Positions 1,566-60,547 of a stretch of DNA of 64,000 bases are shown here, piece by piece (position 1 is the first letter of the stretch; each line of letters begins with the position of its first letter). The translations under genes and the position numbers were made by a program. The stretch comes from Escherichia coli (GTDB lineage Bacteria > Pseudomonadota > Gammaproteobacteria > Enterobacterales > Enterobacteriaceae), in the NCBI RefSeq assembly GCF_965641715.1, contig NZ_OZ282453.1, one strand, 5' to 3'. The notes under the pieces were generated by a model, which saw only the letters and a list, made by a program, of their open reading frames with translations, did no database searches and was not told the origin of the DNA.

Positions 1566-2308
1566 CTGTGGCTCCAGCGCCATTGCACGCGCTCGCCAGG
1601 CAGTGAAAATGTGTCTACATTTTGTAAATAGTGCTGTAAAAACAACATGCTTTGCGGCAGTGTTGTTTCATTGCCCGCAATGGCTGACTGCGTTTCACAT
1701 TGCCAGTCATCGCCAGCTTCAATCACCAGCGCGACGGCGTACGGCCAGGTCGGCATTTCTGCAGGCAGTTGTGGGTGATAAAACTCGGGCAGAAAACCGT
1801 CAAAATCGACCATCAGCACGCGCTGGTATCCCGCTTGTAACAGGCTAAGCACTTCACACAAACCTTGCTGGAAAGTGTCGCGACCAGCAGAAAGCGATGA
1901 CGAAACGATCGGCTGTTTGGCCGCAATGGTCAGGTTACCCACGGAAGAGTTGTGTACTGAAAGTGCAAAGTCGGTCGGAGAAAGCGCCTGTTCGGTTGCC
2001 AGTGCATGAACAATGCGGTAATTGCGCTCCAGTTCGCCATGACGACTGGTATACAAAACGGCGTCTGGCTGATGGCGGCGTAGCATTGCCAGACCGCATT
2101 CAACAGCCAGTTTGCTGCCTGAACTGAGGCGGCGGGCGGTCATCATTGGCAGTTCACTTAATTTTGCCAACGGCGCGGCAGGGTCAATCGCCCACGGCTG
2201 GCGCGACCATGCTTGCCATTGCTGCGCTTCGCTAAGTCCAGGCGCCAGTGCCTGCCAGTCGGTAATATTTAATGTAAATTTCATCAACGCGCGCCCGCGG
2301 TAAACCAA
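1562..2308 (-). CDS. Small ketosynthase-like protein, possible chain-length-factor-type subunit (248 aa)
   Basis: ORF track; size and operon position between a methyltransferase and acyltransferase/ACPs; domain call is by recollection of aryl-polyene clusters. Confidence 0.45.
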   Translation of the reverse strand: MVYRGRALMKFTLNITDWQALAPGLSEAQQWQAWSRQPWAIDPAAPLAKLSELPMMTARRLSSGSKLAVECGLAMLRRHQPDAVLYTSRHGELERNYRIVHALATEQALSPTDFALSVHNSSVGNLTIAAKQPIVSSSLSAGRDTFQQGLCEVLSLLQAGYQRVLMVDFDGFLPEFYHPQLPAEMPTWPYAVALVIEAGDDWQCETQSAIAGNETTLPQSMLFLQHYLQNVDTFSLPGERVQWRWSHR

Positions 2309-2324
2309 AATTATTAAGTGACGA

Positions 2325-3392
2325 TTATTTCTTTTGGCATATCAAAAGTGTATGCCCAACGCCTAAATTATCGTGGCGCTCTGCTACCTGGAATCCTGCT
2401 TTATTCAGATAGTCGTAAAATTTCTCTGCACTATAGAAACGGCTGTTACCGTTTGCCATGCAGGTAAAATAAAGTGAGGACGCGTTCAGGCTAAACGATG
2501 CTGCTTCAAACCGCTGCGCATCCCAGAACAACTCCATGATGCAAACTTTTGCGCCAGGCTTCATTACGCTGGCAATTTTGCTGAGTATGCTAATTATTTG
2601 TTCGGGTGAAAAACAGTCTAAAAATTGGCTCATCCACCAGATATCAGCCTCGCCCGGTAATGGGGCATCGCTTAGCATATCCACCGCATGGAAATCTATG
2701 CGATCAGAAAAACCTGCATTCGCGATATTTTCTTTCGCTAGTACGATTTGTTGTGGCAGATCTAATAACGTCACGGCGATGTTTTCATTGTATTTGCAGC
2801 AACGCAAAGCCCACTTACCCGTATTACCGCCTACATCGTACAATGTTGTGGGGTTGTTGGCGAATACATAAGGCAGTGCGGCGTTAAATGCGCCATCTGA
2901 ATAGTAATGATCAAACGCAAACCAGCTTTCACGAGCGGCGTCTGGTAATTGCGAAAGTGCCGGATATATCGTCGACCAGTCGCCAAATACTTTTAACCCG
3001 GAAGGTTTTCCTTCATTGAGTGAATCGGCGAGGAAGAAGAGCCCCTGGTAACAGACATCCTGGGTGAAATCCATATTCACGCGAGTCATAGTGTCATGCA
3101 GGAGGTAATGACCGATTTTCGCCAGGTAATAAATTCCCTCTTTACAGGTAATAATTCGCCCGCTTAAGCCCATATCTAACAGAACGCTGGCAGCATATTC
3201 GTTGATATGGCTATGTTCGGTGATATCAGCCAGCGTTGCGCCATGTTTGCCTTGCCGATCCAGATATGAAAGTACACCCGCATTACGTAGGCAGAGTGCT
3301 GTTTGAAAAAGCATAGGGGCAAAGGCAATGCGTTGAGCTTCGGTAATCGCATCCAGTGCGCTAAGAGAATCCTGTTCGTACATGTTGGGCAC
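2325..3392 (-). CDS. Class I SAM-dependent O-methyltransferase
   Basis: ORF track; glycine-rich SAM-binding motif LYDVGGNTGKWA and acidic LLDLP motif. Confidence 0.8.
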   Translation of the reverse strand: MPNMYEQDSLSALDAITEAQRIAFAPMLFQTALCLRNAGVLSYLDRQGKHGATLADITEHSHINEYAASVLLDMGLSGRIITCKEGIYYLAKIGHYLLHDTMTRVNMDFTQDVCYQGLFFLADSLNEGKPSGLKVFGDWSTIYPALSQLPDAARESWFAFDHYYSDGAFNAALPYVFANNPTTLYDVGGNTGKWALRCCKYNENIAVTLLDLPQQIVLAKENIANAGFSDRIDFHAVDMLSDAPLPGEADIWWMSQFLDCFSPEQIISILSKIASVMKPGAKVCIMELFWDAQRFEAASFSLNASSLYFTCMANGNSRFYSAEKFYDYLNKAGFQVAERHDNLGVGHTLLICQKK

Positions 3393-3451
3393 AACCTGTT
3401 AAGAGGGAATTAAATTATTATCGGACCGCAACGGCCCGACTTTAGGAAGAA

Positions 3452-3829
3452 TTATAAATCTGCGCCCGCTGACAAATTCAGTTGAATATCTTTGTCGAGA
3501 TTGCGGACCCAGCGATTGTAGTTTTTATGAATTTGTCCGCCTGACGCTTGTAGGTTCTGGCTATTTTCATAATTGATATCGTAGCTGGATGCCGTGTAGT
3601 TAATGCGTATTTCCGCTGAATGATCGCGTGACTGTTGACGTGCTTTAATTATGCCTTGTCCGGCTTCGGACATAATCCATTTGCGTTCAACGCCAGCTTT
3701 CAGAATCGCTTTTTTCACTTGTTCCTGGGTATGACCAGCGCTGACGGTTGAGTGAACCTGATCAATTGGCGCAGTACGCGCGCAACCTGCTAAAGCACCC
3801 ACAACAGCAATAGCCGCAAACCATTTCAT
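3452..3829 (-). CDS. Predicted lipoprotein of unknown function
   Basis: ORF 3452..3841; internal start MKWFAAIAVVGALAGC gives a signal peptide with lipobox LAGC. Confidence 0.55.
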   Translation of the reverse strand: MKWFAAIAVVGALAGCARTAPIDQVHSTVSAGHTQEQVKKAILKAGVERKWIMSEAGQGIIKARQQSRDHSAEIRINYTASSYDINYENSQNLQASGGQIHKNYNRWVRNLDKDIQLNLSAGADL

Positions 3830-4220: not shown

Positions 4221-5270
4221 TTAACCCGGTAACCGACTTTTCGGTCTGCCCGGCCCCAGTAAAATCGCCAGTTTGCTACCGCCTTTGGTGGTTTCCATCC
4301 AGATTTTACACACGCTGGTTAATGGCACCGAAAGTAGCATCCCTACCGGGCCGAGCAGCCATCCCCAAATTAACAATGAAAGAAATACCACCATGGTGGA
4401 CATCCCCAGGCGATGGCCCATCATCCGTGGTTCTAAAATATTGCCGATAACCATATGGACAACTAAAAACAATGCGCCGACCAGAATACATTCGTAAACA
4501 CCATTAAACAGCAGCACCTGAATCATTGGCGGTACGGCGGAAATTACCGCGCCGATATTGGGCACGTAGTTGAGCAAAAACGCCAGTACTGCCCACATCA
4601 GCGCAAACTGCACCCCCATCAGCTCCAGCCCCAGCCAGACGATGACACCTGCCCATAAACTGAGTAGCGTCTTCAATGCAAGATAGTGCGAAACACCTTT
4701 TAAGGCGCGGTGTAGTCCGGCGATATGAATCTGTGGATTATCCAATGCAAAACGCATTTTGTAAGGGACGTGGCGCACTTCAAACAGCATAAAAACTACG
4801 GTCATCACCAGCAAAAGCACGCTCGCCATTGCCCCGGAAAGCCCGGTCATTAGCGCTGTGGTGAAGGTAACCACTTTTTCCGAGTCCATCCGCTGCAGCA
4901 TTCGCTCCGGCGACATATGCAAATTAAGAAAAGGCAACATCTCCTGCAATTTAAAAAGTTTGCGCGTCAGCTCCTTATTAAACTTCGGCAGCATAGAGAT
5001 AAATTCGTTAAACGATGCCGCCAGTACGCCGACCAGCGCGGTTAGTGTGATCAGCATCACCACCACCACAATCGTAATGGCAACGGGGCGTTTTACTCCC
5101 CGTCGAATAAACCAGGTAACGAGCGGGTTGAGGACGATGGCAAAAAACAGCGCCAGTAACAGCTGCACAATGATATCTGCCGCTGCGTGAATGCCCGCGA
5201 GGATCACTACCAGCGAGGCCAGCTTGAGCAGAATGTGCATGCCCGTTTTATCGGGTTGAGGGGTTTCCAT
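4221..5270 (-). CDS. yhhT: AI-2E/PerM-family membrane transporter
   Basis: ORF 4221..5351; start METPQPDKTG chosen to match the 349-aa K-12 protein. Confidence 0.9.
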   Translation of the reverse strand: METPQPDKTGMHILLKLASLVVILAGIHAAADIIVQLLLALFFAIVLNPLVTWFIRRGVKRPVAITIVVVVMLITLTALVGVLAASFNEFISMLPKFNKELTRKLFKLQEMLPFLNLHMSPERMLQRMDSEKVVTFTTALMTGLSGAMASVLLLVMTVVFMLFEVRHVPYKMRFALDNPQIHIAGLHRALKGVSHYLALKTLLSLWAGVIVWLGLELMGVQFALMWAVLAFLLNYVPNIGAVISAVPPMIQVLLFNGVYECILVGALFLVVHMVIGNILEPRMMGHRLGMSTMVVFLSLLIWGWLLGPVGMLLSVPLTSVCKIWMETTKGGSKLAILLGPGRPKSRLPG

Positions 5271-5401: not shown

Positions 5402-6619
5402 ATGCCCGAACCCGTAGCCGAACCCGCGCTAAACGGATTGCGCCTGAATTTGCGCATTGTCTCCATTGTCATGTTTAACTTCGCCAGCTACCTCACCATC
5501 GGGTTGCCGCTCGCTGTATTACCGGGCTATGTCCATGATGTGATGGGCTTTAGCGCTTTCTGGGCAGGATTGGTTATCAGCCTGCAATATTTTGCCACCT
5601 TGCTGAGCCGTCCTCATGCCGGACGTTACGCCGATTTGCTGGGCCCCAAAAAGATTGTCGTCTTCGGTTTATGCGGCTGCTTTTTGAGCGGTCTGGGATA
5701 TCTGACGGCAGGATTAACCGCCAGTCAGCCCGTCATCAGCCTGTTATTACTTTGCCTGGGACGCGTCATCCTTGGGATTGGGCAAAGTTTTGCCGGAACG
5801 GGATCGACCCTGTGGGGCGTTGGCGTGGTTGGCTCGCTGCATATCGGGCGGGTGATTTCGTGGAACGGCATTGTCACTTACGGGGCGATGGCGATGGGTG
5901 CGCCGTTAGGCGTCGTGTTTTATCACTGGGGCGGCTTGCAGGCGTTAGCGTTAATCATTATGGGCGTGGCGCTGGTGGCCATTTTGTTGGCGATCCCGCG
6001 TCCGACGGTAAAAGCCAGTAAAGGCAAACCGCTGCCGTTTCGCGCGGTGCTTGGGCGCGTCTGGCTGTACGGTATGGCGCTGGCGTTGGCTTCCGCCGGA
6101 TTTGGCGTCATCGCCACCTTTATCACGCTGTTTTATGACGCTAAAGGTTGGGACGGTGCGGCTTTCGCGCTGACGCTGTTTAGCTGTGCGTTTGTCGGTA
6201 CGCGTTTGTTATTCCCTAACGGCATTAACCGTATCGGCGGCTTAAACGTAGCGATGATTTGCTTTAGCGTTGAGATAATCGGCCTGCTACTGGTTGGCGT
6301 GGCGACTATGCCGTGGATGGCGAAAATCGGCGTCTTACTGGCGGGGGCCGGGTTTTCGCTGGTGTTCCCGGCATTGGGTGTAGTGGCGGTAAAAGCGGTT
6401 CCGCAGCAAAATCAGGGGGCGGCGCTGGCAACTTACACCGTATTTATGGATTTATCGCTTGGCGTGACTGGACCACTGGCTGGGCTGGTGATGAGCTGGG
6501 CGGGCGTACCGGTGATTTATCTGGCGGCGGCGGGACTGGTCGCAATCGCGTTATTACTGACGTGGCGATTAAAAAAACGGCCTCCGGAACACGTCCCTGA
6601 GGCCGCCTCATCATCTTAA
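5402..6619 (+). CDS. yhhS: MFS transporter
   Basis: ORF 5360..6619; start MPEPVAEP matches the 405-aa K-12 protein. Confidence 0.9.
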   Translation: MPEPVAEPALNGLRLNLRIVSIVMFNFASYLTIGLPLAVLPGYVHDVMGFSAFWAGLVISLQYFATLLSRPHAGRYADLLGPKKIVVFGLCGCFLSGLGYLTAGLTASQPVISLLLLCLGRVILGIGQSFAGTGSTLWGVGVVGSLHIGRVISWNGIVTYGAMAMGAPLGVVFYHWGGLQALALIIMGVALVAILLAIPRPTVKASKGKPLPFRAVLGRVWLYGMALALASAGFGVIATFITLFYDAKGWDGAAFALTLFSCAFVGTRLLFPNGINRIGGLNVAMICFSVEIIGLLLVGVATMPWMAKIGVLLAGAGFSLVFPALGVVAVKAVPQQNQGAALATYTVFMDLSLGVTGPLAGLVMSWAGVPVIYLAAAGLVAIALLLTWRLKKRPPEHVPEAASSS

Positions 6620-6622
6620 AAC

Positions 6623-7180
6623 TTACTGAATAACCAGCGTATTAATGATGTTTTCTGCGGTGGTCTGCGCTTTTTGCTGATCGTCAGCTGGCAGAGTAAT
6701 TTGCATGGTCAGCAGTTGATTACCCACGTTACCCAGAATAACGGAAGAGTACGCCGTCTGGCCTTTCGCGGAGATAATACTGTCTAACTGCTGCATTTTG
6801 TGACCTTTCAGCTCAATGGCTTTATTGGTTACCACTTGCAGCTGCGGATCGCGGCTACGTTGCTGATCTTCCAGACGCTTCGCCAGCACCGCCAGATCTT
6901 CTTTCGGATCATCGCCCATGATGACGATGACTGCTTTCTGCCCGGTGGCGTCGGACCAGACATGCATGTTATTGGCCTGCGTTCCCAGCTTACCGCTCTG
7001 GTCGGTCATATCCGCTGGCAGCGAGAAACTTAACTTGCCATCAAGCAGGTTGACGGGATTCCCGGTAGCGTTACTTTCCGCGACCGAACCCTGCGCCGTA
7101 GCGTTAGTGTCTTTATCATCACAGGCCGCAAGCCCCATAACCAGCAGGCCAATTCCGACATATTTAACCAGATTGCGCAT
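6623..7180 (-). CDS. dcrB: Periplasmic lipoprotein DcrB
   Basis: ORF 6623..7234; start [20 protein letters not shown] with lipobox. Confidence 0.9.
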
Positions 7181-7252
7181 TGACTTCTTCCTTTCGATAA
7201 ACGGCCATAACGGCTCATTCATCCATCTTATCACAACTCTGATAACGAACCT

Positions 7253-7918
7253 TTAACTCGCCTGCAAAGCGTTGATTTCGGATTTATCTGCCAGTCTTTT
7301 CAACAGCATATTGAGTAATACGCCATACATTGGCAGGAAGAAAACGATACTGATTAACACTTTGAAACAGTAATCGACCAGCGCGATTTCCATCCAGTGT
7401 TCAGCCATAAAGGCATCCGGGCTACGCCAGAAGGCAATGAAGAAAAAGGCCAGCGTGTCGCTGACGTTACCGAACAGTGTGGACGCTGTCGGTGCCAGCC
7501 ACCAGCGGCGACTCTGACGCAGGCGGTTAAAAACGTGCACGTCGAGGATCTGTCCCAGCGCGTAGGCCATGAAACTGGCGGTGGCGATACGGGCGACAAA
7601 CAGGTTGAAGTGAGCGAGTGCGCCGAATCCCTGCCAGGAGCCCATATAGAACAGCGACGAGATGACGTAGGAGATCAGCAACGCCGGGATCATCACCGCA
7701 AAGATGATACGACGGGCCAGCGGTGCGCCAAAAATACGCACGGTCAGGTCAGTAGCAAGGAAAATAAACGGAAAGCTAAACGCGCCCCAGGTGGTATGGA
7801 AACCAAAAATGGAGACGGGAAGCTGAACCAGATAGTTACTGGAGGTGATCACCAGAAGATGAAATAACGATAACCAGAACAACGCCTTATAGCGTTGCGT
7901 TTGCGAGAAAACGTTCAT
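7253..7918 (-). CDS. yhhQ: Queuosine-precursor transporter
   Basis: 221-aa membrane ORF, same length as K-12 YhhQ. Confidence 0.9.
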   Translation of the reverse strand: MNVFSQTQRYKALFWLSLFHLLVITSSNYLVQLPVSIFGFHTTWGAFSFPFIFLATDLTVRIFGAPLARRIIFAVMIPALLISYVISSLFYMGSWQGFGALAHFNLFVARIATASFMAYALGQILDVHVFNRLRQSRRWWLAPTASTLFGNVSDTLAFFFIAFWRSPDAFMAEHWMEIALVDYCFKVLISIVFFLPMYGVLLNMLLKRLADKSEINALQAS

Positions 7919-8138
7919 ATTGTACCTTTTTGATTAACCATTGGGGTGAGGGAACCCAATACGTACGACACGTCTGTTACCTTAACATAATAACGTGCTT
8001 ACCCTTTTTTCGAGCCGCCGCATGATACTGCTTTACGTTGACAATGCAATGGTTAATTTTCACGCAATCGTTAACCTGGTTTGCTTACGGACTCACAGGG
8101 CGTAAACTAGCGCCGTTTTTTTATGTGATGAGAAGAAA

Positions 8139-8384
8139 ATGACCGATCTCTTTTCCAGCCCTGACCACACTCTCGACGCACTTGGCCTGCGCTGCCCGGA
8201 ACCCGTAATGATGGTGCGCAAAACAGTGCGCAATATGCAGCCAGGTGAAACGTTGCTGATTATTGCTGACGATCCGGCGACGACCCGCGATATCCCTGGG
8301 TTTTGTACCTTTATGGAACACGAACTGGTTGCCAAAGAGACGGATGGACTGCCTTATCGTTATTTGATTCGTAAAGGTGGTTAA
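8139..8384 (+). CDS. tusA: Sulfur carrier protein TusA
   Basis: 81 aa with CPxP motif (LRCPEPV). Confidence 0.95.
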
Positions 8385-8394
8385 GGTGGATCAC

Positions 8395-8525
8395 GGACTG
8401 TTACCCTAACCCTCTCCCCAGAGGGGCGAGTGGACCGATCGCACTCAATGTTGCTGCTTGAAACCGGTACGTAGGACGGATAAGGCGTTCACGCCGCATC
8501 CGGCAAGCAAGTGTAATGGAATACA
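8395..8525. repeat. REP-type intergenic palindromic repeats
   Basis: gtaggacggataaggcgttcacgccgcatccggcaagc and ccctctccccagaggggcgag palindromes. Confidence 0.55.
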
Positions 8526-8528
8526 CAA

Positions 8529-8837
8529 ATGGATTATTTAATTCCTGTTTGCCTGGGATTGCTGGGATTGTTCGCGATGTTCGCCCCCAATTGGCTGATG
8601 CCTGTTTTAATCGCCGTGGGGGGATGGCTGGTGGTACTTGCCTGTGGTTGGCTCTGGCTAATGATTTTTTTACCTTTACTTAACGGCGTCGGGCTTGCTT
8701 ATGCCCTGTGGTTGATGTTCAAAAGGCCATCATTCACGTCCCGCCTGGTTGCTACATGTTGTGTTATCTCCGTCATTCTGATGTTAGCGCTATATTACAC
8801 TTTCCTGACCATGCCACCGTTCCCGGCCCAGCACTAA
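8529..8837 (+). CDS. Hypothetical small membrane protein (102 aa); may be non-coding
   Basis: ORF track only; very hydrophobic; sits between convergent tusA and zntA. Confidence 0.2.
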   Translation: MDYLIPVCLGLLGLFAMFAPNWLMPVLIAVGGWLVVLACGWLWLMIFLPLLNGVGLAYALWLMFKRPSFTSRLVATCCVISVILMLALYYTFLTMPPFPAQH

Positions 8838-8869
8838 CCCTGATAGCCAGAGGCTATCAGGCAACACCT

Positions 8870-24078: not shown

Positions 24079-24842
24079 GTCAGCCATTATTATCTGTTAA
24101 CGGCCTGATGATGCGCTTCGGCGGCCTGCTGGCGGTGAACAACGTCAATCTTGAACTGTACCCGCAGGAGATCGTCTCGTTAATCGGCCCTAACGGTGCC
24201 GGAAAAACCACGGTCTTCAACTGCCTGACCGGTTTCTACAAACCCACCGGCGGCACCATTTTACTGCGCGATCAGCATCTGGAAGGTTTGCCGGGGCAGC
24301 AAATCGCCCGCATGGGCGTGGTGCGTACCTTCCAGCATGTGCGTCTGTTCCGTGAAATGACGGTAATTGAAAACCTGCTGGTGGCGCAGCATCAGCAACT
24401 GAAAACCGGGCTGTTCTCAGGCCTGTTGAAAACGCCGTCTTTCCGTCGCGCCCAAAGTGAAGCGCTCGACCGCGCCGCCACCTGGCTTGAGCGCATTGGT
24501 TTGCTGGAACACGCCAACCGTCAGGCGAGTAACCTGGCCTATGGTGACCAGCGCCGTCTGGAGATCGCCCGCTGCATGGTGACGCAGCCGGAGATTTTAA
24601 TGCTCGACGAACCTGCGGCAGGTCTTAACCCGAAAGAAACGAAAGAGCTGGATGAGCTGATTGCCGAACTGCGTAACCATCACAACACCACTATCTTGTT
24701 GATTGAACACGATATGAAGCTGGTGATGGGAATTTCGGACCGAATTTACGTGGTCAATCAGGGGACGCCGCTGGCAAACGGTACGCCGGAGCAAATCCGT
24801 AATAACCCGGACGTGATCCGTGCCTATTTAGGTGAGGCATAA
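24075..24842 (+). CDS. livG: Branched-chain amino acid ABC ATPase
   Basis: 255 aa; Walker [10 protein letters not shown]. Confidence 0.95.
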
Positions 24843-24843
24843 G

Positions 24844-25557
24844 ATGGAAAAAGTCATGTTGTCCTTTGACAAAGTCAGCGCCCACTACGGCAAAATCCAG
24901 GCGCTGCATGAGGTGAGCCTGCATATCAATCAGGGCGAGATTGTCACGCTGATTGGCGCGAACGGGGCGGGGAAAACCACCTTGCTCGGCACGTTATGCG
25001 GCGATCCGCGCGCCACCAGCGGGCGAATTGTGTTTGATGATAAAGACATTACCGACTGGCAGACGGCGAAAATCATGCGCGAAGCGGTAGCGATTGTCCC
25101 GGAAGGGCGTCGCGTCTTCTCGCGGATGACGGTGGAAGAGAACCTGGCGATGGGCGGCTTTTTTGCCGAACGTGATCAGTTTCAGGAGCGCATAAAGTGG
25201 GTGTATGAGCTGTTTCCACGTCTTCATGAGCGTCGTGTTCAGCGGGCGGGCACCATGTCCGGCGGTGAACAGCAGATGCTGGCGATTGGTCGCGCGCTGA
25301 TGAGCAACCCGCGTTTGTTGTTGCTTGATGAGCCATCGCTCGGTCTTGCGCCGATTATCATCCAGCAAATTTTCGACACCATCGAGCAGCTGCGCGAGCA
25401 GGGGATGACGATCTTCCTCGTCGAGCAGAACGCCAACCAGGCGCTGAAGCTGGCGGATCGCGGCTACGTGCTGGAAAACGGCCATGTTGTGCTCTCCGAT
25501 ACCGGCGATGCGCTGCTGGCGAACGAAGCAGTGAGAAGTGCGTATTTAGGCGGGTAA
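24844..25557 (+). CDS. livF: Branched-chain amino acid ABC ATPase
   Basis: ORF 24832..25557; start MEKVMLSF; Walker A GANGAGKTT. Confidence 0.95.
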   Translation: MEKVMLSFDKVSAHYGKIQALHEVSLHINQGEIVTLIGANGAGKTTLLGTLCGDPRATSGRIVFDDKDITDWQTAKIMREAVAIVPEGRRVFSRMTVEENLAMGGFFAERDQFQERIKWVYELFPRLHERRVQRAGTMSGGEQQMLAIGRALMSNPRLLLLDEPSLGLAPIIIQQIFDTIEQLREQGMTIFLVEQNANQALKLADRGYVLENGHVVLSDTGDALLANEAVRSAYLGG

Positions 25558-25675
25558 ATTATCGAATACCCGGCAGCCACGTTCTGCCGGGATCTTCGTC
25601 CGTATACAGACTTGTTTCAACTGACCGGGAGGATTAAAACCAGACCACTTATTTGCCACGGAAAGGTTCCCTCCC

Positions 25676-26422
25676 ATGCATTATGCCGTTGTTGTCATGC
25701 TTGAACTGCTTTGCTGTATTCACGCTTACCGTACCGGACAAGAGCGGTACTGGATTTTTATCATTTTCTGTTTTCCGGTGATTGGCTGCGTGGCGTATTT
25801 CGTCATAGTGATGCTGCCTGAAACGGGCGCTGACCGTCACGGGCATACTTTGCTGATGCGCCTGCAGAACAAACTCAACCCTGAGCGCCACCTGCGCAAA
25901 TTAACCGAAGAACTGGCGATTGCCGAGACGAATCAAAACCATTATGCGTTGGCTAATGAACTGGCGCGTCTGGGGCGTTATCACGAAGCTGTTCCCCATT
26001 ATCAGCAGGCGTTAAGCGGGATATTCGCCCATGAAGCGGCAATGATGCTAAGCCTGGCGCAGGCACAGTTTGCTATTCAGGAGTTCGCCGCCTGTCAGCA
26101 GACGCTGGAAGATGTGATGCGTTATAACCCTGATTTTCAGTCGGCAGACGGGCATTTGTTATTTGCCAGAACGTTAGCCGCACAAGAAAAATACGCTGAT
26201 GCGGAAAGCGAGTTTGAAGTATTGATTTCTTATTACCCCGGCCCGCAGGCGCGTATTTACTATGCGGAAATGTTGGCGAAAATGAGTCGGTTACGTGAAG
26301 CCAACGAGCAGTATGTTGCCGTGGTTGATACGGCTAAACGCTCAAGACCTCATTATAGAAAACACCACCGGGAATGGATTAAGACCGCCAATGAACGGCT
26401 GAAGCAGAGTGTGGTGCAATGA
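25676..26422 (+). CDS. Hypothetical membrane-anchored protein with TPR-like helical domain (248 aa)
   Basis: ORF track; two N-terminal hydrophobic segments then helical repeat-like region; lies in an intergenic space that I recall as much shorter in K-12. Confidence 0.45.
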   Translation: MHYAVVVMLELLCCIHAYRTGQERYWIFIIFCFPVIGCVAYFVIVMLPETGADRHGHTLLMRLQNKLNPERHLRKLTEELAIAETNQNHYALANELARLGRYHEAVPHYQQALSGIFAHEAAMMLSLAQAQFAIQEFAACQQTLEDVMRYNPDFQSADGHLLFARTLAAQEKYADAESEFEVLISYYPGPQARIYYAEMLAKMSRLREANEQYVAVVDTAKRSRPHYRKHHREWIKTANERLKQSVVQ

Positions 26423-26639
26423 AAATCTTCTTTGCCGTTAGACCAGTGTCGCGGCAATCTTTTGTTAAAATTGAAAAATGTAGCTCTCATCGGGCAGCAA
26501 AACTGGACGCAGAATTTGCTGCCATTTTTGCTCTTCATGGTAAGGAGTTCTGGCGATTAGCTGGCCGTTAATCGCCTCTTTTCAGTGCATTCTCGGGATA
26601 TCCGTGCCCCATCTCCCATTTTCCCTCACCCGTACCGTC

Positions 26640-26760
26640 ACCGCCTTGTCATCTTTCTGACACCTTACTATCTTACAAATGTAACAAAAAAGTTATTTTT
26701 CTGTAATTCGAGCATGTCATGTTACCCCGCGAGCATAAAACGCGTGAATTCGCGCATTCG
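26640..26760 (+). promoter_or_regulatory. ugpB promoter region with Pho-box-like repeats
   Basis: Repeated CTGTCAT/ATGTCAT/CTGTAAT-like heptamers upstream of ugpB; ugp is a known Pho-regulon operon. Confidence 0.5.
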
Positions 26761-26781
26761 GTACAACAAGAGAGATAAACG

Positions 26782-28098
26782 ATGAAACCGTTACATTATA
26801 CAGCTTCAGCACTGGCGCTCGGACTGGCGTTAATGGGGAATGCACAGGCAGTGACGACCATTCCGTTCTGGCATTCTATGGAAGGGGAACTGGGTAAAGA
26901 GGTGGATTCTCTGGCCCAACGTTTTAACGCCGAAAACCCGGATTACAAAATTGTACCGACCTATAAAGGCAACTACGAACAGAATTTAAGCGCGGGGATT
27001 GCCGCATTTCGTACCGGCAATGCTCCGGCTATTTTGCAGGTTTATGAAGTTGGCACCGCCACCATGATGGCGTCGAAAGCCATTAAACCGGTATATGACG
27101 TGTTTAAAGAGGCGGGGATTCAATTCGATGAGTCGCAGTTTGTGCCGACGGTTTCCGGTTACTACTCCGACAGCAAAACGGGCCACTTACTCTCCCAGCC
27201 ATTCAACAGCTCGACCCCCGTTCTCTATTACAACAAAGACGCCTTCAAGAAAGCGGGGTTAGACCCGGAACAACCGCCGAAAACCTGGCAGGATCTGGCG
27301 GACTATGCCGCAAAACTAAAAGCCTCCGGCATGAAGTGCGGCTACGCCAGCGGCTGGCAGGGCTGGATCCAACTGGAAAACTTTAGCGCCTGGAACGGTC
27401 TGCCGTTTGCCAGCAAGAACAACGGTTTTGACGGCACAGACGCGGTGCTTGAGTTCAACAAGCCGGAGCAGGTGAAACACATCGCCATGCTCGAAGAGAT
27501 GAACAAGAAGGGCGATTTCAGCTACGTCGGGCGTAAGGATGAATCCACCGAGAAGTTCTATAACGGTGATTGCGCGATGACCACCGCCTCTTCCGGTTCT
27601 CTCGCTAACATTCGTGAGTACGCCAAATTTAACTACGGCGTAGGCATGATGCCTTACGACGCCAATGCGAAAGATGCACCGCAAAACGCCATTATCGGCG
27701 GGGCCAGCCTGTGGGTGATGCAGGGCAAAGATAAAGAAACGTATACCGGCGTGGCGAAGTTCCTCGACTTCCTCGCGAAGCCAGAAAACGCTGCCGAGTG
27801 GCATCAGAAAACCGGTTATCTGCCAATCACCAAAGCAGCGTATGACCTGACCCGTGAGCAGGGCTTTTATGAGAAAAACCCAGGGGCGGATACCGCGACG
27901 CGTCAGATGCTGAATAAGCCGCCGTTGCCGTTCACTAAAGGGCTGCGTCTGGGCAACATGCCGCAGATCCGCGTGATTGTGGATGAAGAGCTGGAGAGCG
28001 TGTGGACCGGTAAGAAGACACCGCAGCAGGCACTGGATACCGCCGTTGAGCGTGGGAACCAGTTACTGCGCCGCTTTGAGAAATCGACGAAGTCTTAA
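26782..28098 (+). CDS. ugpB: sn-glycerol-3-phosphate periplasmic binding protein
   Basis: 438 aa with signal peptide. Confidence 0.95.
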
Positions 28099-34029: not shown

Positions 34030-34066
34030 GGTTAGCGGCCCTCTTCGTGGGAAGAGGGCTATTTTG

Positions 34067-34351
34067 TCAGGGCAAGCCGAAGGTAGCCTTTTTTATTTCG
34101 TAATCCTGTAGATATTCTTCCAGCGGCTTTGCCGTTCCCAGAGAATGAATTTCACCACTGTCTTTATCAATAATAAAAGGTGCGTTACCAGCTAAGCGCG
34201 CGGCCTCATCTCCAGTTTCGAGAAATTCTCGTGCTTCGAAACAGAAATACCAGCCCTGGCTAAAGCGTCCATGTAGAGTAATGACGACCGGGAGATCTGC
34301 ATCATCAAGGTAATGGTTCGCTTTCGCGAATGCGTCGTGATAAGTAATCAT
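34067..34351 (-). CDS. yrhB: YrhB-family small protein (immunity-like)
   Basis: 94 aa; matches recalled K-12 YrhB. Confidence 0.8.
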   Translation of the reverse strand: MITYHDAFAKANHYLDDADLPVVITLHGRFSQGWYFCFEAREFLETGDEAARLAGNAPFIIDKDSGEIHSLGTAKPLEEYLQDYEIKKATFGLP

Positions 34352-34800
34352 AATTATAATAAATATTATTGTTGAATGTTATATTATTATTCCTGTGTGA
34401 TACATTGAGCAAAGGTGCATTCATCTTCGTCAAAGATATTATTAAATGCTGGTTTTGAAAAAAGTTCATCGGATAAGATATAGTCACGAAATAAGTATCT
34501 GCTAATATTTTGTGATTTCTTTTTCAGAACGTCGAACGGGATTTTCTTATTTAAGATATCAGAATCTTATGATTTGGGTAAAATTCTAAATAAATCAACA
34601 TGTCACTAAAATCATCATAGCCATTAGCTATTTCGGCTAAAATAGAGACTACATGTCTTCGGTCCATCTCACTTAAGGAGTGTAGTTCCGTTGTAAGTTT
34701 TTCCATAGCTTGCATTGCTAAATTTCGAACAAGGAATTTTCTGGTGGTAATCTCTAAAAAGATGGCATGGTTTACAATGATTTTTGTTTCCTTTTGATTA

Positions 34801-35295
34801 TTATGAACAACTATCCATGATTTCGTTTAAGAATGAAGAGAAATCACTAAACGAACTGAATATATTTTCTGTGCCAATATTATCTCTAATTTCAAAAAAG
34901 TTACTTTTAATGTCATAAGTAAATATTGAAATGCTATCATCCCCGATCACTAACCGTTCTTGTAGATCAGGGTTTATGAAATCATCATTATTTCTATAAA
35001 ATTCATTTACGGCAAAAAGGTTTTTAACTGAAGGTTCTGGAATCGAGAGGCTAAATAATCGCAATCCATTAACTTCGAATCCATCCATTGCTCTTAAAAA
35101 AGTAAGATAATCAGGTTGATTCTTAAAAAGAATACTAACTTCATTACATAACTTCTCCAGGCAATTAGTTGAATTAGAATTAAATTCTATTTGGATTATA
35201 CTTTCAATAAATGATTCCTTGAGCGGTGCTTCAAATGGATAGTCTAAATCATTCATCATTTTTATTAATTTGTTTATTTGGGTTTTAGTCATCAT
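34801..35295 (-). CDS. yrhA: Putative immunity protein for the upstream HNH toxin domain (YrhA-like), intact here
   Basis: 164 aa; start overlaps the toxin ORF stop by 4 bp; low-GC gene. Confidence 0.6.
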   Translation of the reverse strand: MMTKTQINKLIKMMNDLDYPFEAPLKESFIESIIQIEFNSNSTNCLEKLCNEVSILFKNQPDYLTFLRAMDGFEVNGLRLFSLSIPEPSVKNLFAVNEFYRNNDDFINPDLQERLVIGDDSISIFTYDIKSNFFEIRDNIGTENIFSSFSDFSSFLNEIMDSCS

Positions 35296-36470
35296 TTTGT
35301 GGGTTCCATAATATTTTTCATGGGAGGATAAATTGAGCCAGATGGAATGGCCCAGGGAGTGATTTTGCTTTCACCTACTAATATTCCCTTAGCTATTCGT
35401 GATTGCATGTTAGTAAAAACTTTATGATATGGTTCGTTTTCGATTAATACTAAATTTTCGAAATCATTAGTACCACCATCATCTAGAGATAGTTTATGGT
35501 GAACATTATAATTTAGAGGAACATAGCCCTTTCTCATTCTTAAAAGGTCTTCGGTGTTGAATCTTCCAGATGCTTCGGAGGTTTTTGCAAGTTTGATAAG
35601 AAAATTTTTTCTTACAGTTTTGTTAAACTCCTTTCGTAAGTTAGCTAAGTCTTTTGAAGGTCTCTTAATGTATATTATTTATATTATGTCTATGCCATCA
35701 AGAAGTTTTTGTTGATCTCTAAGTTTGCCTAAGTAACTATTTATTTCTGTATATGTATCAACTTTAGAACGCTTTGTTAAAAGAATAGATGCTGTTGCTA
35801 TCGCTATGCCCGCTGTTTTTTCATTTAGTATTTGATCATAGCCTTTGATTGCATCTCCACCCAGTTTTTCCGCAGTATCTCTGAATCCTTCAATGTTCCC
35901 ATTGTATACGCCACCAGCAGCAAGTAGCCTGCCAACAGCTTTGCTGTTTAACGTTTTGAAACGATTATTTGTTTGGTTTTTTGAATTTGGTAAAAACAAA
36001 CGGTTATAATTTTCAGGGAGTGCCAAATAGCTGAACTCGGTATTTGCGATAAGATGTTGACAGAGGATAAATTCATAACTAACAGTTATTGTTTCTGTAT
36101 CCAGTTGATTTTGAATGATCTGATGATGAATAGCCGATAAAAAAGCGCCTCTTAGTTGTGTATAATAATACTTTTCCCATCTACCAAATCTATTGATTCT
36201 ATAAAAGTCAAATTTCATAAATAATTGCTCATTATTGTTAATGGAATTAATAAGTAATGGAGTGCTTTTATCAATTAATTTACAAAATGTCATAGCCTGT
36301 AACTGTGAACCAAGCCCCGTATTAGTAATTCTATTTTCGAGTGAGAATGTAAATATTTCATTCTCATGCCCGCTCTGCCAGCGATTACCTATAGATTCAG
36401 TAGTCCCACAACCTGCGGAGATGCTTCCTTGTTGTTCTCCCGTTACTGTCAGATAAACAATATTACTCAT
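35292..36470 (-). pseudogene. yhhZ: Hcp-domain protein fused to a C-terminal HNH nuclease toxin (yhhZ-like), interrupted by one in-frame TAA at 35679..35681
   Basis: 263-aa ORF with Hcp-like N-terminus; same frame continues after the single stop through 47 codons into the 81-aa HNH ORF (NVHHKLSLDDGGTNDFENLVLIENEPYH); 392 codons in total. Confidence 0.65.
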
Positions 36471-36706
36471 CCCTGAAAAGTCCTTTTATGGCATGCTATT
36501 TTATCAATGGCACTATTATGCTTGTTAATTGTTATTTATTTACTCCAGGAAATTGTAGGCGTATATATTAAAAAATAAAATATTACACTTTAGGAAGTAA
36601 TTATGAGGTAAGTCTCAATATATTTATTGGGAAAATAAATACATTAAAGGAAGGTATGCCGATTTTGAATGACACCCTTTTTCCATCTCAGAAAAAGGGC
36701 ACTATT

Positions 36707-60278: not shown

Positions 60279-60402
60279 TGATGAATATAATCAGACTTTA
60301 TATTTATCCGTTATTTCTCGGCTTTGTTATTGTGCCGTTGTTGGTGTGGCCGATGGTGGTTGCGCTGGCTGCTTGTATTATCGTTGACAAAGTGCACTTT
60401 GT

Positions 60403-60437
60403 TCATGCCTGATGCGGCGTGAACGCCTTATCAGGCC
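60403..60437. repeat. REP element
   Basis: gcctgatgcggcgtgaacgccttatcaggcctac. Confidence 0.7.
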
Positions 60438-60547
60438 TACAAAATCATGCAAATTCAATATATTGCATAAACCACGCATCAGGCAATTTTGTGTTTGTCA
60501 TCAGTCTCAGGCCAGATTGAAATCTGACCTGATCACCTTACGTTAAT

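Follow-up and report, generated by a model that had tools for sequence, protein, structure and literature searches.

The gap between livF and ugpB in a 64-kb stretch of Escherichia coli DNA (hereafter the window, meaning the whole stretch that we analyzed) holds a functional chromosomal gene, which is an ordinary, annotated accessory gene of the species and not an anomaly. Taking our genomic, comparative and structural analyses as a whole, we favor, with a probability of roughly 0.7, the explanation that this gene is ancestral, that it forms a transcription unit of its own and that it encodes a tetratricopeptide repeat (TPR) adaptor of the membrane. Our survey of complete genomes shows that approximately 12% of sequenced E. 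coli, or about one in eight, keep the gene under purifying selection and that approximately 85%, K-12 among them, are without it.

Two alleles of the livF-ugpB junction in E. coli

In the window, livF ends at position 25557 and ugpB begins at 26782, leaving a gap of 1224 bp whose single long open reading frame (ORF) starts with an ATG at 25676, continues on the plus strand to 26422 and specifies 248 amino acids (Table 1). The ORF has the same direction as ugpB, ends 359 bp upstream of it and directly precedes the control region of ugp. All of this agrees with the original prediction, which had described a full-length ORF in a gap of about 1.2 kb and had given the corresponding gap in K-12 as shorter. 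Alignment with K-12 (strain DH10B) gave a gap of 398 bp from which the ORF is absent, and the interval seen in the window is not one that K-12 shares. Over the 1.5 kb around the TPR ORF, the window is 99.9% identical to E. coli strain ECNB21-M121. The ORF listing for livF itself reaches further 5′ than the coordinates in Table 1, to a GTG at 24832.

Table 1. Features of the livF-ugpB junction, in window coordinates.
Feature	Position	Strand	Basis or remark
livF	24844..25557	+	left flank, common to both alleles; 714-bp gene in the PGAP annotation of ECNB21-M121
GC-rich hairpin, probable livF terminator with weak U tract	25569..25591	+	RNA fold -17.5 kcal/mol, z = -2.6
Tentative promoter of the gene (TTGTTT, 17 nt, TAAAAC)	25612..25640	+	conserved block; weak match
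Allele-specific segment, 1041 bp, with the TPR gene	25558..26598	.	alignment with K-12 DH10B, blastn
TPR-protein CDS, 248 aa, predicted PLDc_N-like membrane hairpin and TPR	25676..26422	+	WP_000558844.1; ECs_4300 orthologue
Predicted two-helix membrane hairpin, residues 1-50	25676..25825	+	AlphaFold2 helices 2-20 and 23-50; hydropathy
Four predicted TPR helix pairs, residues 86-222	25931..26341	+	
Family signature S156-A-D-G-H-L-L-F-A-R165	26141..26170	+	start of TPR3 helix A
First stable hairpin after the stop codon	26488..26539	+	RNA fold -17.6 kcal/mol, z = -2.8
Terminator-like hairpin (26552-26576), 10-bp stem, UCUUUUCAGU (UCUUUU) tail	26552..26585	+	terminator scan; RNA fold -16.5 kcal/mol, z = -3.1
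Control region of ugp, common to the window and K-12 (98.4% identity)	26599..26781	+	blastn, alignment
ugpB	26782..28098	+	right flank

The two alleles part at 25557/25558, directly after the livF stop codon, and meet again at 26598/26599, 183 bp before ugpB. The segment enclosed by these junctions measures 1041 bp in the window and 215 bp, of unrelated sequence, in K-12, and a blastn comparison of the window with the K-12 intergenic region found homology only at 26599-26781, with no remnant of the gene in K-12. Together, these data show that in K-12-type strains the 1041 bp are swapped for 215 bp of REP-containing DNA while the ugp control region is left intact. The K-12 segment resembles REP/BIME extragenic palindromes in that it carries GCCTGATGCGC...TATCAGGCCTAC and GTAGGCCTGATAAGGCGTTTACGCCGCATCCGGCA, and we regard it as REP DNA because genomes hold a median of 11 places with these repeats and because copies lie elsewhere in the window, at 60402-60509 and 8471-8505. 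At this junction, the likeness is a feature of the alternative K-12 allele and not of the window sequence.

Among 5426 complete E. coli genomes, we found the TPR gene in 659, chromosomal in every case, and the K-12-type spacer in 4630; the remaining genomes have other junction states, such as that of ETEC1731, in which the entire ugp operon is deleted, and that of ECO2947, in which IS3 is inserted in the gene. Strains that carry the gene include O157:H7, O55:H7, O145:H28 and SMS-3-5.

A predicted membrane hairpin joined to four TPRs

The product is predicted to be an integral membrane protein of 248 aa in which a PLDc_N-type hairpin anchors four TPRs and a basic C-terminal helix. Kyte-Doolittle hydropathy peaks are centered at residues 8-12 and 31-45, and an AlphaFold2 model built on a 20-sequence alignment (mean pLDDT 87.9) places two helices in the N-terminal 50 residues, linker helices at 55-67 and 71-82, the four TPR helix pairs and, at 225-247, strongly basic C-terminal helices, with 12 K/R/H versus 2 D/E in the last 29 residues of the protein. 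Hydropathy and model thus both recover the two N-terminal hydrophobic segments of the original prediction, and the helical, repeat-like C-terminal domain that it had described can now be named as TPR: the Pfam models TPR_19 (38.7 bits, cut-off 25) and TPR_2 (29.8 bits, cut-off 27) score above their curated thresholds, and the modeled domain consists of tandem antiparallel helix pairs, as is the case for the TPR clan. TPR_19, TPR_14, TPR_6 and TPR_16 each match all 20 of 20 family members, and, among solved structures, a search by sequence brought up nothing but generic TPR proteins. For the hairpin, the Pfam model PLDc_N (PF13396) scored 20.0 bits on the window protein, under its gathering threshold of 23.3, with E = 6.9e-4 and a match confined to residues 26-44; it matched 8 of 20 relatives at E ≤ 0.01 (best E = 2.7e-5), and by hydropathy and model the window protein begins, as the PLDc_N type does, with two neighboring hydrophobic helices.

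A profile of the family was searched against 1.84 billion representative proteins, and matches at E ≤ 1e-30, clustered at 50% identity, amounted to 679 clusters. Of these, the best 150 are nearly all 240-255 aa long and match from end to end (profile positions 1-245), and members of the family occur in Pseudomonas, Lysobacterales, Bradyrhizobium and other Proteobacteria. On sequence criteria, namely a length of about 245 aa and alignment from end to end, the window protein is a member of this widespread proteobacterial family of hairpin and TPR proteins, which we refer to as ECs_4300-like. A few homologues have N-terminal extensions, which look like mis-called start codons. In 20 diverse members, the hairpin columns H16, G21, W26, G37, Y41 and P48 are invariant, and so are S156, G159, H160, L161, A164 and R165 in and next to the motif S-[AS]-[DE]-G-H-L-L-[YF]-A; the window protein has every element of this signature, and the signature peptide alone pulled 154 relatives from genome contigs. 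None of the PADLOC anti-phage defence models matched the family at E ≤ 0.01.

A candidate adaptor at the inner membrane

By analogy with what TPR domains generally do, the most likely role of the product is that of a membrane-anchored adaptor. The hairpin would tether the TPR domain at the inner membrane, the TPR groove could bind a partner protein or peptide, and the adaptor would hold or regulate this partner at the membrane. Helix A of a TPR lines the ligand groove, and we take the invariant S-A-D-G-H-L-L-x-A-R in helix A of TPR3 to be the probable site of contact. Conservation of the hairpin at its six invariant positions goes beyond what a simple anchor needs, which suggests that the hairpin may be more than an anchor.

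Membrane topology was assessed over 174 family members. The net charge is +1.6 in the loop between the two helices and +2.0 in the stretch of 15 residues that comes after helix 2; with basic sequence on either side of that helix, the positive-inside rule gives an ambiguous answer. Because the charge is heavier past helix 2 and the C-terminus is basic as well, we lean slightly towards a cytoplasmic TPR domain. Possible but unlikely is a variant of the adaptor explanation that differs in compartment and in the class of partner, with the TPR domain in the periplasm as a CpoB/YbgF-, YfgM- or NlpI-like adaptor for a protease, a chaperone or a cell-wall enzyme. The approximately two conserved Lys/Arg residues of the inter-helix loop would be consistent with a loop in the cytoplasm and with N- and C-termini on the outside, and the best NCBIfam match is tol_pal_ybgF, though far under its cut-off; on the other hand, the segment after helix 2 is more positive still (3.1 Lys/Arg), the C-terminal 29 residues are rich in basic side chains, a signal peptide is absent, and the TPR matches are generic, with cytoplasmic proteins no less numerous among them.

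We consider it doubtful that the family is a membrane-lipid or envelope-homeostasis factor, for example a module that senses or modifies cardiolipin or phosphatidylglycerol, as opposed to a passive adaptor. This proposal draws on the length of about 245 aa, the near-invariant intramembrane His/Trp/Tyr hairpin, the S-A-D-G-H-L-L-x-A-R motif and a hairpin that would be shared with cardiolipin synthases. If it were true, presence or absence of the gene, as between O157:H7 and K-12, would be a real physiological difference between lineages.

Ancestry of the gene and origin of the K-12 spacer

Beyond E. coli, at least seven genomes, from other Escherichia species, Citrobacter and Pseudocitrobacter, have livG, livF, the gene and ugpB in this order. 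At the livF-ugpB junction, protein identity to the window is 94-95% in two Escherichia sp. genomes, 95% in E. whittamii, 92% in E. albertii (with a frameshift near residue 185), 75% in C. freundii, 68% in Citrobacter sp. NCU1 and 69% in a Pseudocitrobacter metagenome-assembled genome. A further copy, with 94% identity, is present in E. fergusonii. The ORF is kept across strains, species and genera, and protein identity drops (95%, 92%, 75%, 68%) as the species lie farther apart on the species tree. The GC content of the gene (50%) is typical of the genome, and that of the allele-specific segment is 49% against 51% for the window. At the junctions that we inspected, no integrase, IS element, tRNA, direct repeat or mobility gene stands beside the segment; phage records gave no match, and plasmid records gave distant copies only: four lie on megaplasmids or chromids, and a 373-kb Comamonas plasmid has a partial match. 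From the shared position, the divergence in species order, the typical GC content and the lack of mobility, phage or mobile-plasmid signs, we infer that the gene is ancestral to the Escherichia-Citrobacter group. Most simply, it already lay between livF and ugpB in the ancestors that Escherichia and Citrobacter share, and the short, REP-filled spacer of K-12-type strains is the derived state, a REP-associated replacement of the ancestral gene.

An improbable alternative is horizontal acquisition, with the 1-kb segment being an islet, or "O-island", that was put into an ancestrally short spacer. Such an origin would be in keeping with carriage by only 12% of E. coli, with a patchy occurrence in Enterobacteriaceae that is limited to Escherichia, some Citrobacter and Pseudocitrobacter, with the unusual divergence of the E. 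coli alleles (90-100% DNA identity, dS up to 0.25) and with their mosaic flanks, the 3′ end of livF being just 92-95% identical between the window and SMS-3-5. It is harder to square with a constant position and species-order divergence across the three genera, with junctions free of integrase, IS element, tRNA and direct repeat, with genome-typical GC content and with the lack of phage and mobile-plasmid copies in the records searched; moreover, instead of an empty site, K-12 has 215 bp of unrelated REP DNA. High allele divergence and mosaic flanks point to recombination that shuffled the alleles of the ancestral gene, and some E. coli copies may thus have been re-imported by recombination instead of having come down by strict vertical descent.

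Transcription signals and the ugp promoters

The probable livF terminator hairpin is conserved in E. coli alleles and is found, with changes, in C. freundii. Between it and the gene, E. coli and C. freundii have a single conserved upstream block in common, ACAGACTTGTTTCA ... GGAGG.TTAAA, and this block holds the tentative promoter of the gene's own, a weak TTGTTT/TAAAAC match that a consensus promoter scan did not report. Promoters of the sigma-E and sigma-32 types upstream of the ORF were rejected in a by-eye comparison for unfit spacing. On the downstream side, the first stable hairpin has an alternative pairing, GGCAGCAAA/UUUGCUGCC and then AUUUUUGCUCUU, as read from the sequence, and the terminator-like hairpin comes after it. 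A search of positions 25300-27000 against Rfam gave no match. We propose that the gene would be transcribed alone from the weak, conserved promoter-like element and that the hairpins would end its transcript before the ugp promoter; with a promoter of its own and terminating hairpins, the gene would stand outside the liv and ugp operons and would not drive ugp.

The genomic context of relatives also does not place the gene in the liv or ugp operon. Outside Enterobacteriaceae, the genes that surround the homologues (in Pseudomonas, Exilibacterium, Bradyrhizobium and others) are unrelated, and in the window hairpins lie both toward livF and toward ugpB. Context inspection and all-versus-all clustering of the ORFs in 3.5 kb around 80 loci revealed no neighbor that recurs across genera. 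The sole large cluster other than that of the target proved to be an artefact, namely the gene's own antisense frame in high-GC genomes.

Multiple Pho boxes and an upstream cAMP-CRP promoter are described before ugpB (Kasahara 1991, as summarized in PMC4415409). In a crude scan, the best CRP-like match, which is tentative, lies in both alleles at 26600-26621, at the allele junction. The placing of this junction suggests that the allele replacement may have stopped exactly at the edge of the functional ugp region.

It is very unlikely that the ORF is mainly regulatory, with its transcription entering or interfering with the Pho- and CRP-controlled ugp promoters and ugp expression in carriers differing from that in K-12. 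The shared direction, the 359 bp that separate the gene from ugpB and the adjacency of the allele junction to the best CRP-like sequence would allow it, but a terminator-like hairpin and a second stable hairpin separate the stop codon from the control region that both alleles have, the 183 bp of that region are 98.4% identical in the two alleles, and K-12 has the co-directional livF at the equivalent upstream position and a similar distance. Purifying selection and family-wide conservation show, in addition, that the product itself is maintained, and a Sakai growth-transition transcriptome, which is weak evidence here, reports ugpB as induced 6.5-fold and does not mention ECs4300. Judged from the hairpins and the shared control region, the idea that transcription of the TPR gene drives ugp is not supported.

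Identity and coding status of the gene

The window product is identical to RefSeq WP_000558844.1, to which PGAP gives the name "tetratricopeptide repeat protein", and is one residue (N65D) apart from ECs_4300 of O157:H7 Sakai (NP_312327.1, "hypothetical protein"). Both the existence and the annotation of the gene are thus already known, from hundreds of RefSeq genomes and, as ECs_4300, from the Sakai record. Our literature search found no experimental or expression data for ECs_4300 or any family member, and the interest of the gene is biochemical, as a member of an uncharacterized family of hairpin and TPR proteins. O157:H7 is a tractable organism for studying this large proteobacterial family; practical consequences are modest, and we saw no sign of a new type of system or of altered ugp regulation.

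That the window has a genuine extra gene relative to K-12, as was first supposed from its ORF, is upheld by homology and HMM searches, which returned the full-length family and the TPR models above their Pfam thresholds, and by coding potential, with a codon-usage score built from the neighboring liv and ugp genes being highest in the annotated frame. The same aligned methionine start is used in 167 of 174 family members, full-length homologues of equal length reach down to 31% identity, and dN/dS between Escherichia alleles of the gene is 0.08-0.24. A run of 248 sense codons has, by our own arithmetic, a chance of (61/64)^248, or about 7e-6 per start. A reading without function, in which the frame is open by chance or belongs to a decaying pseudogene, has negligible probability, and the conservation data rule it out: most E. 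coli are without the ORF and some copies are broken (by an IS3 insertion inside the gene in ECO2947 and a frameshift in the E. albertii type strain), yet the sampled E. coli alleles and those of other genera are intact at equal length, homologues form hundreds of full-length clusters, the fold is confidently predicted, and the dN/dS values and the codon-usage score likewise speak for a maintained protein.

Comparison with known systems

The closest known counterpart is ECs_4300 / WP_000558844.1, which is the same gene at the same locus as the window ORF, with no structural difference. With cardiolipin synthases of the ClsA type, the window protein shares a predicted two-helix membrane hairpin like that of PLDc_N, with a W...P..G...Y pattern in helix 2, but it has no phospholipase-D/HKD catalytic domain and carries TPRs after the hairpin instead. 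It is not itself a cardiolipin synthase: the TIGR04265 model reaches 11.9 bits against a cut-off of 290, over residues 22-54 only, and no PLDc Pfam domain is present. Its likeness to the E. coli TPR adaptors of the envelope or inner membrane, YfgM (the partner of PpiD), CpoB/YbgF, NlpI and LapB/YciM, does not go beyond the general TPR fold (12-16% identity). Assignment to CpoB/YbgF was rejected, with TIGR02795 (tol_pal_ybgF) at 31.6 bits against an equivalog cut-off of 90.1; NCBIfam gave no match to a LapB, YfgM or NlpI model, and the protein lacks the rubredoxin-like C-terminus of LapB. From all four of these proteins it differs in its predicted anchor, which is a two-helix hairpin and not a single helix or a lipid.

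Insertions and gene loss at the livF–ugpB junction

The junction between livF and ugpB takes up insertions in several lineages, as illustrated by Citrobacter freundii CP055551.1, in which four additional genes separate the TPR gene from ugpB. The Pseudocitrobacter metagenome-assembled genome carries a REP-like palindrome, GTAGGCCGGATAAGGCGTTTACGCCGCATCCGGCA, between livF and the TPR gene, and REP elements have therefore colonised the spacer also in lineages that retain this gene. A third state of the locus was observed in E. coli ETEC1731, which lacks the entire ugpBAECQ operon and has a 5'-truncated ggt pseudogene next to livF on its downstream side.

Disrupted and variant copies of the TPR gene

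Among the E. coli copies, that of strain ECO2947 is split after approximately 32 codons by an IS3-family element, and PGAP annotates both halves as pseudogene fragments. The allele of O145 strain RM9467-C1 contains one additional Ala codon near residue 121 and is named by PGAP as a hypothetical protein rather than as a TPR protein, despite 94.5% DNA identity. In the E. albertii type strain, NBRC 107761, the orthologue has a frameshift near residue 185 and is therefore probably a pseudogene. We also found that high-GC homologues are overlapped by a long antisense ORF, with equivalents in 49 loci that cluster across genera; this ORF is an artefact of base composition that arises from the conserved sense frame, and we rejected it as a second gene.

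Coordinates of features in the window and in comparison loci from other genomes (L handles; positions are within each locus unless an accession is given)
Sequence	Feature	Position
Window	livF start, mechanical ORF listing: GTG, 241 aa	24832
Window	livF start, PGAP: ATG, 237 aa	24844
Window	Stretch including the livF 3' end, compared with SMS-3-5	25076-25675
Window	Colinear with O157:H7 Sakai	1-34065
Window	Additional relative to Sakai (~415 bp)	8455-8869
Window	REP-like match	8471-8505
Window	No match in the compared Sakai stretch	34066-36705
ETEC1731 (L099)	Third state of the locus	NZ_CP122816.1 305211-313368
ECO2947 (L096)	TPR gene split by IS3-family element	1646-3653
RM9467-C1 (L095)	TPR allele with additional Ala codon	601-1350
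NBRC 107761 (L020)	Frameshifted TPR orthologue	6001-6743
High-GC homologue (L022)	Antisense ORF	5866-6816 (-)
C. freundii (L004)	93-aa ORF, 135-aa ORF, PhdYeFM antitoxin, Fic/Doc toxin	6850-8324
Pseudocitrobacter (L017)	REP-like palindrome	~4720-4830

Mosaic identity around the locus

Over its colinear portion, the window is 98.3% identical to Sakai, the exception being a single additional stretch that itself contains a REP-like match. In a comparison with E. coli SMS-3-5 (L097), identity is only 92-95% at the livF 3' end but 97-99% across the adjoining TPR gene. Such a mosaic of sequence identity suggests that DNA around the locus has recombined with divergent lineages.
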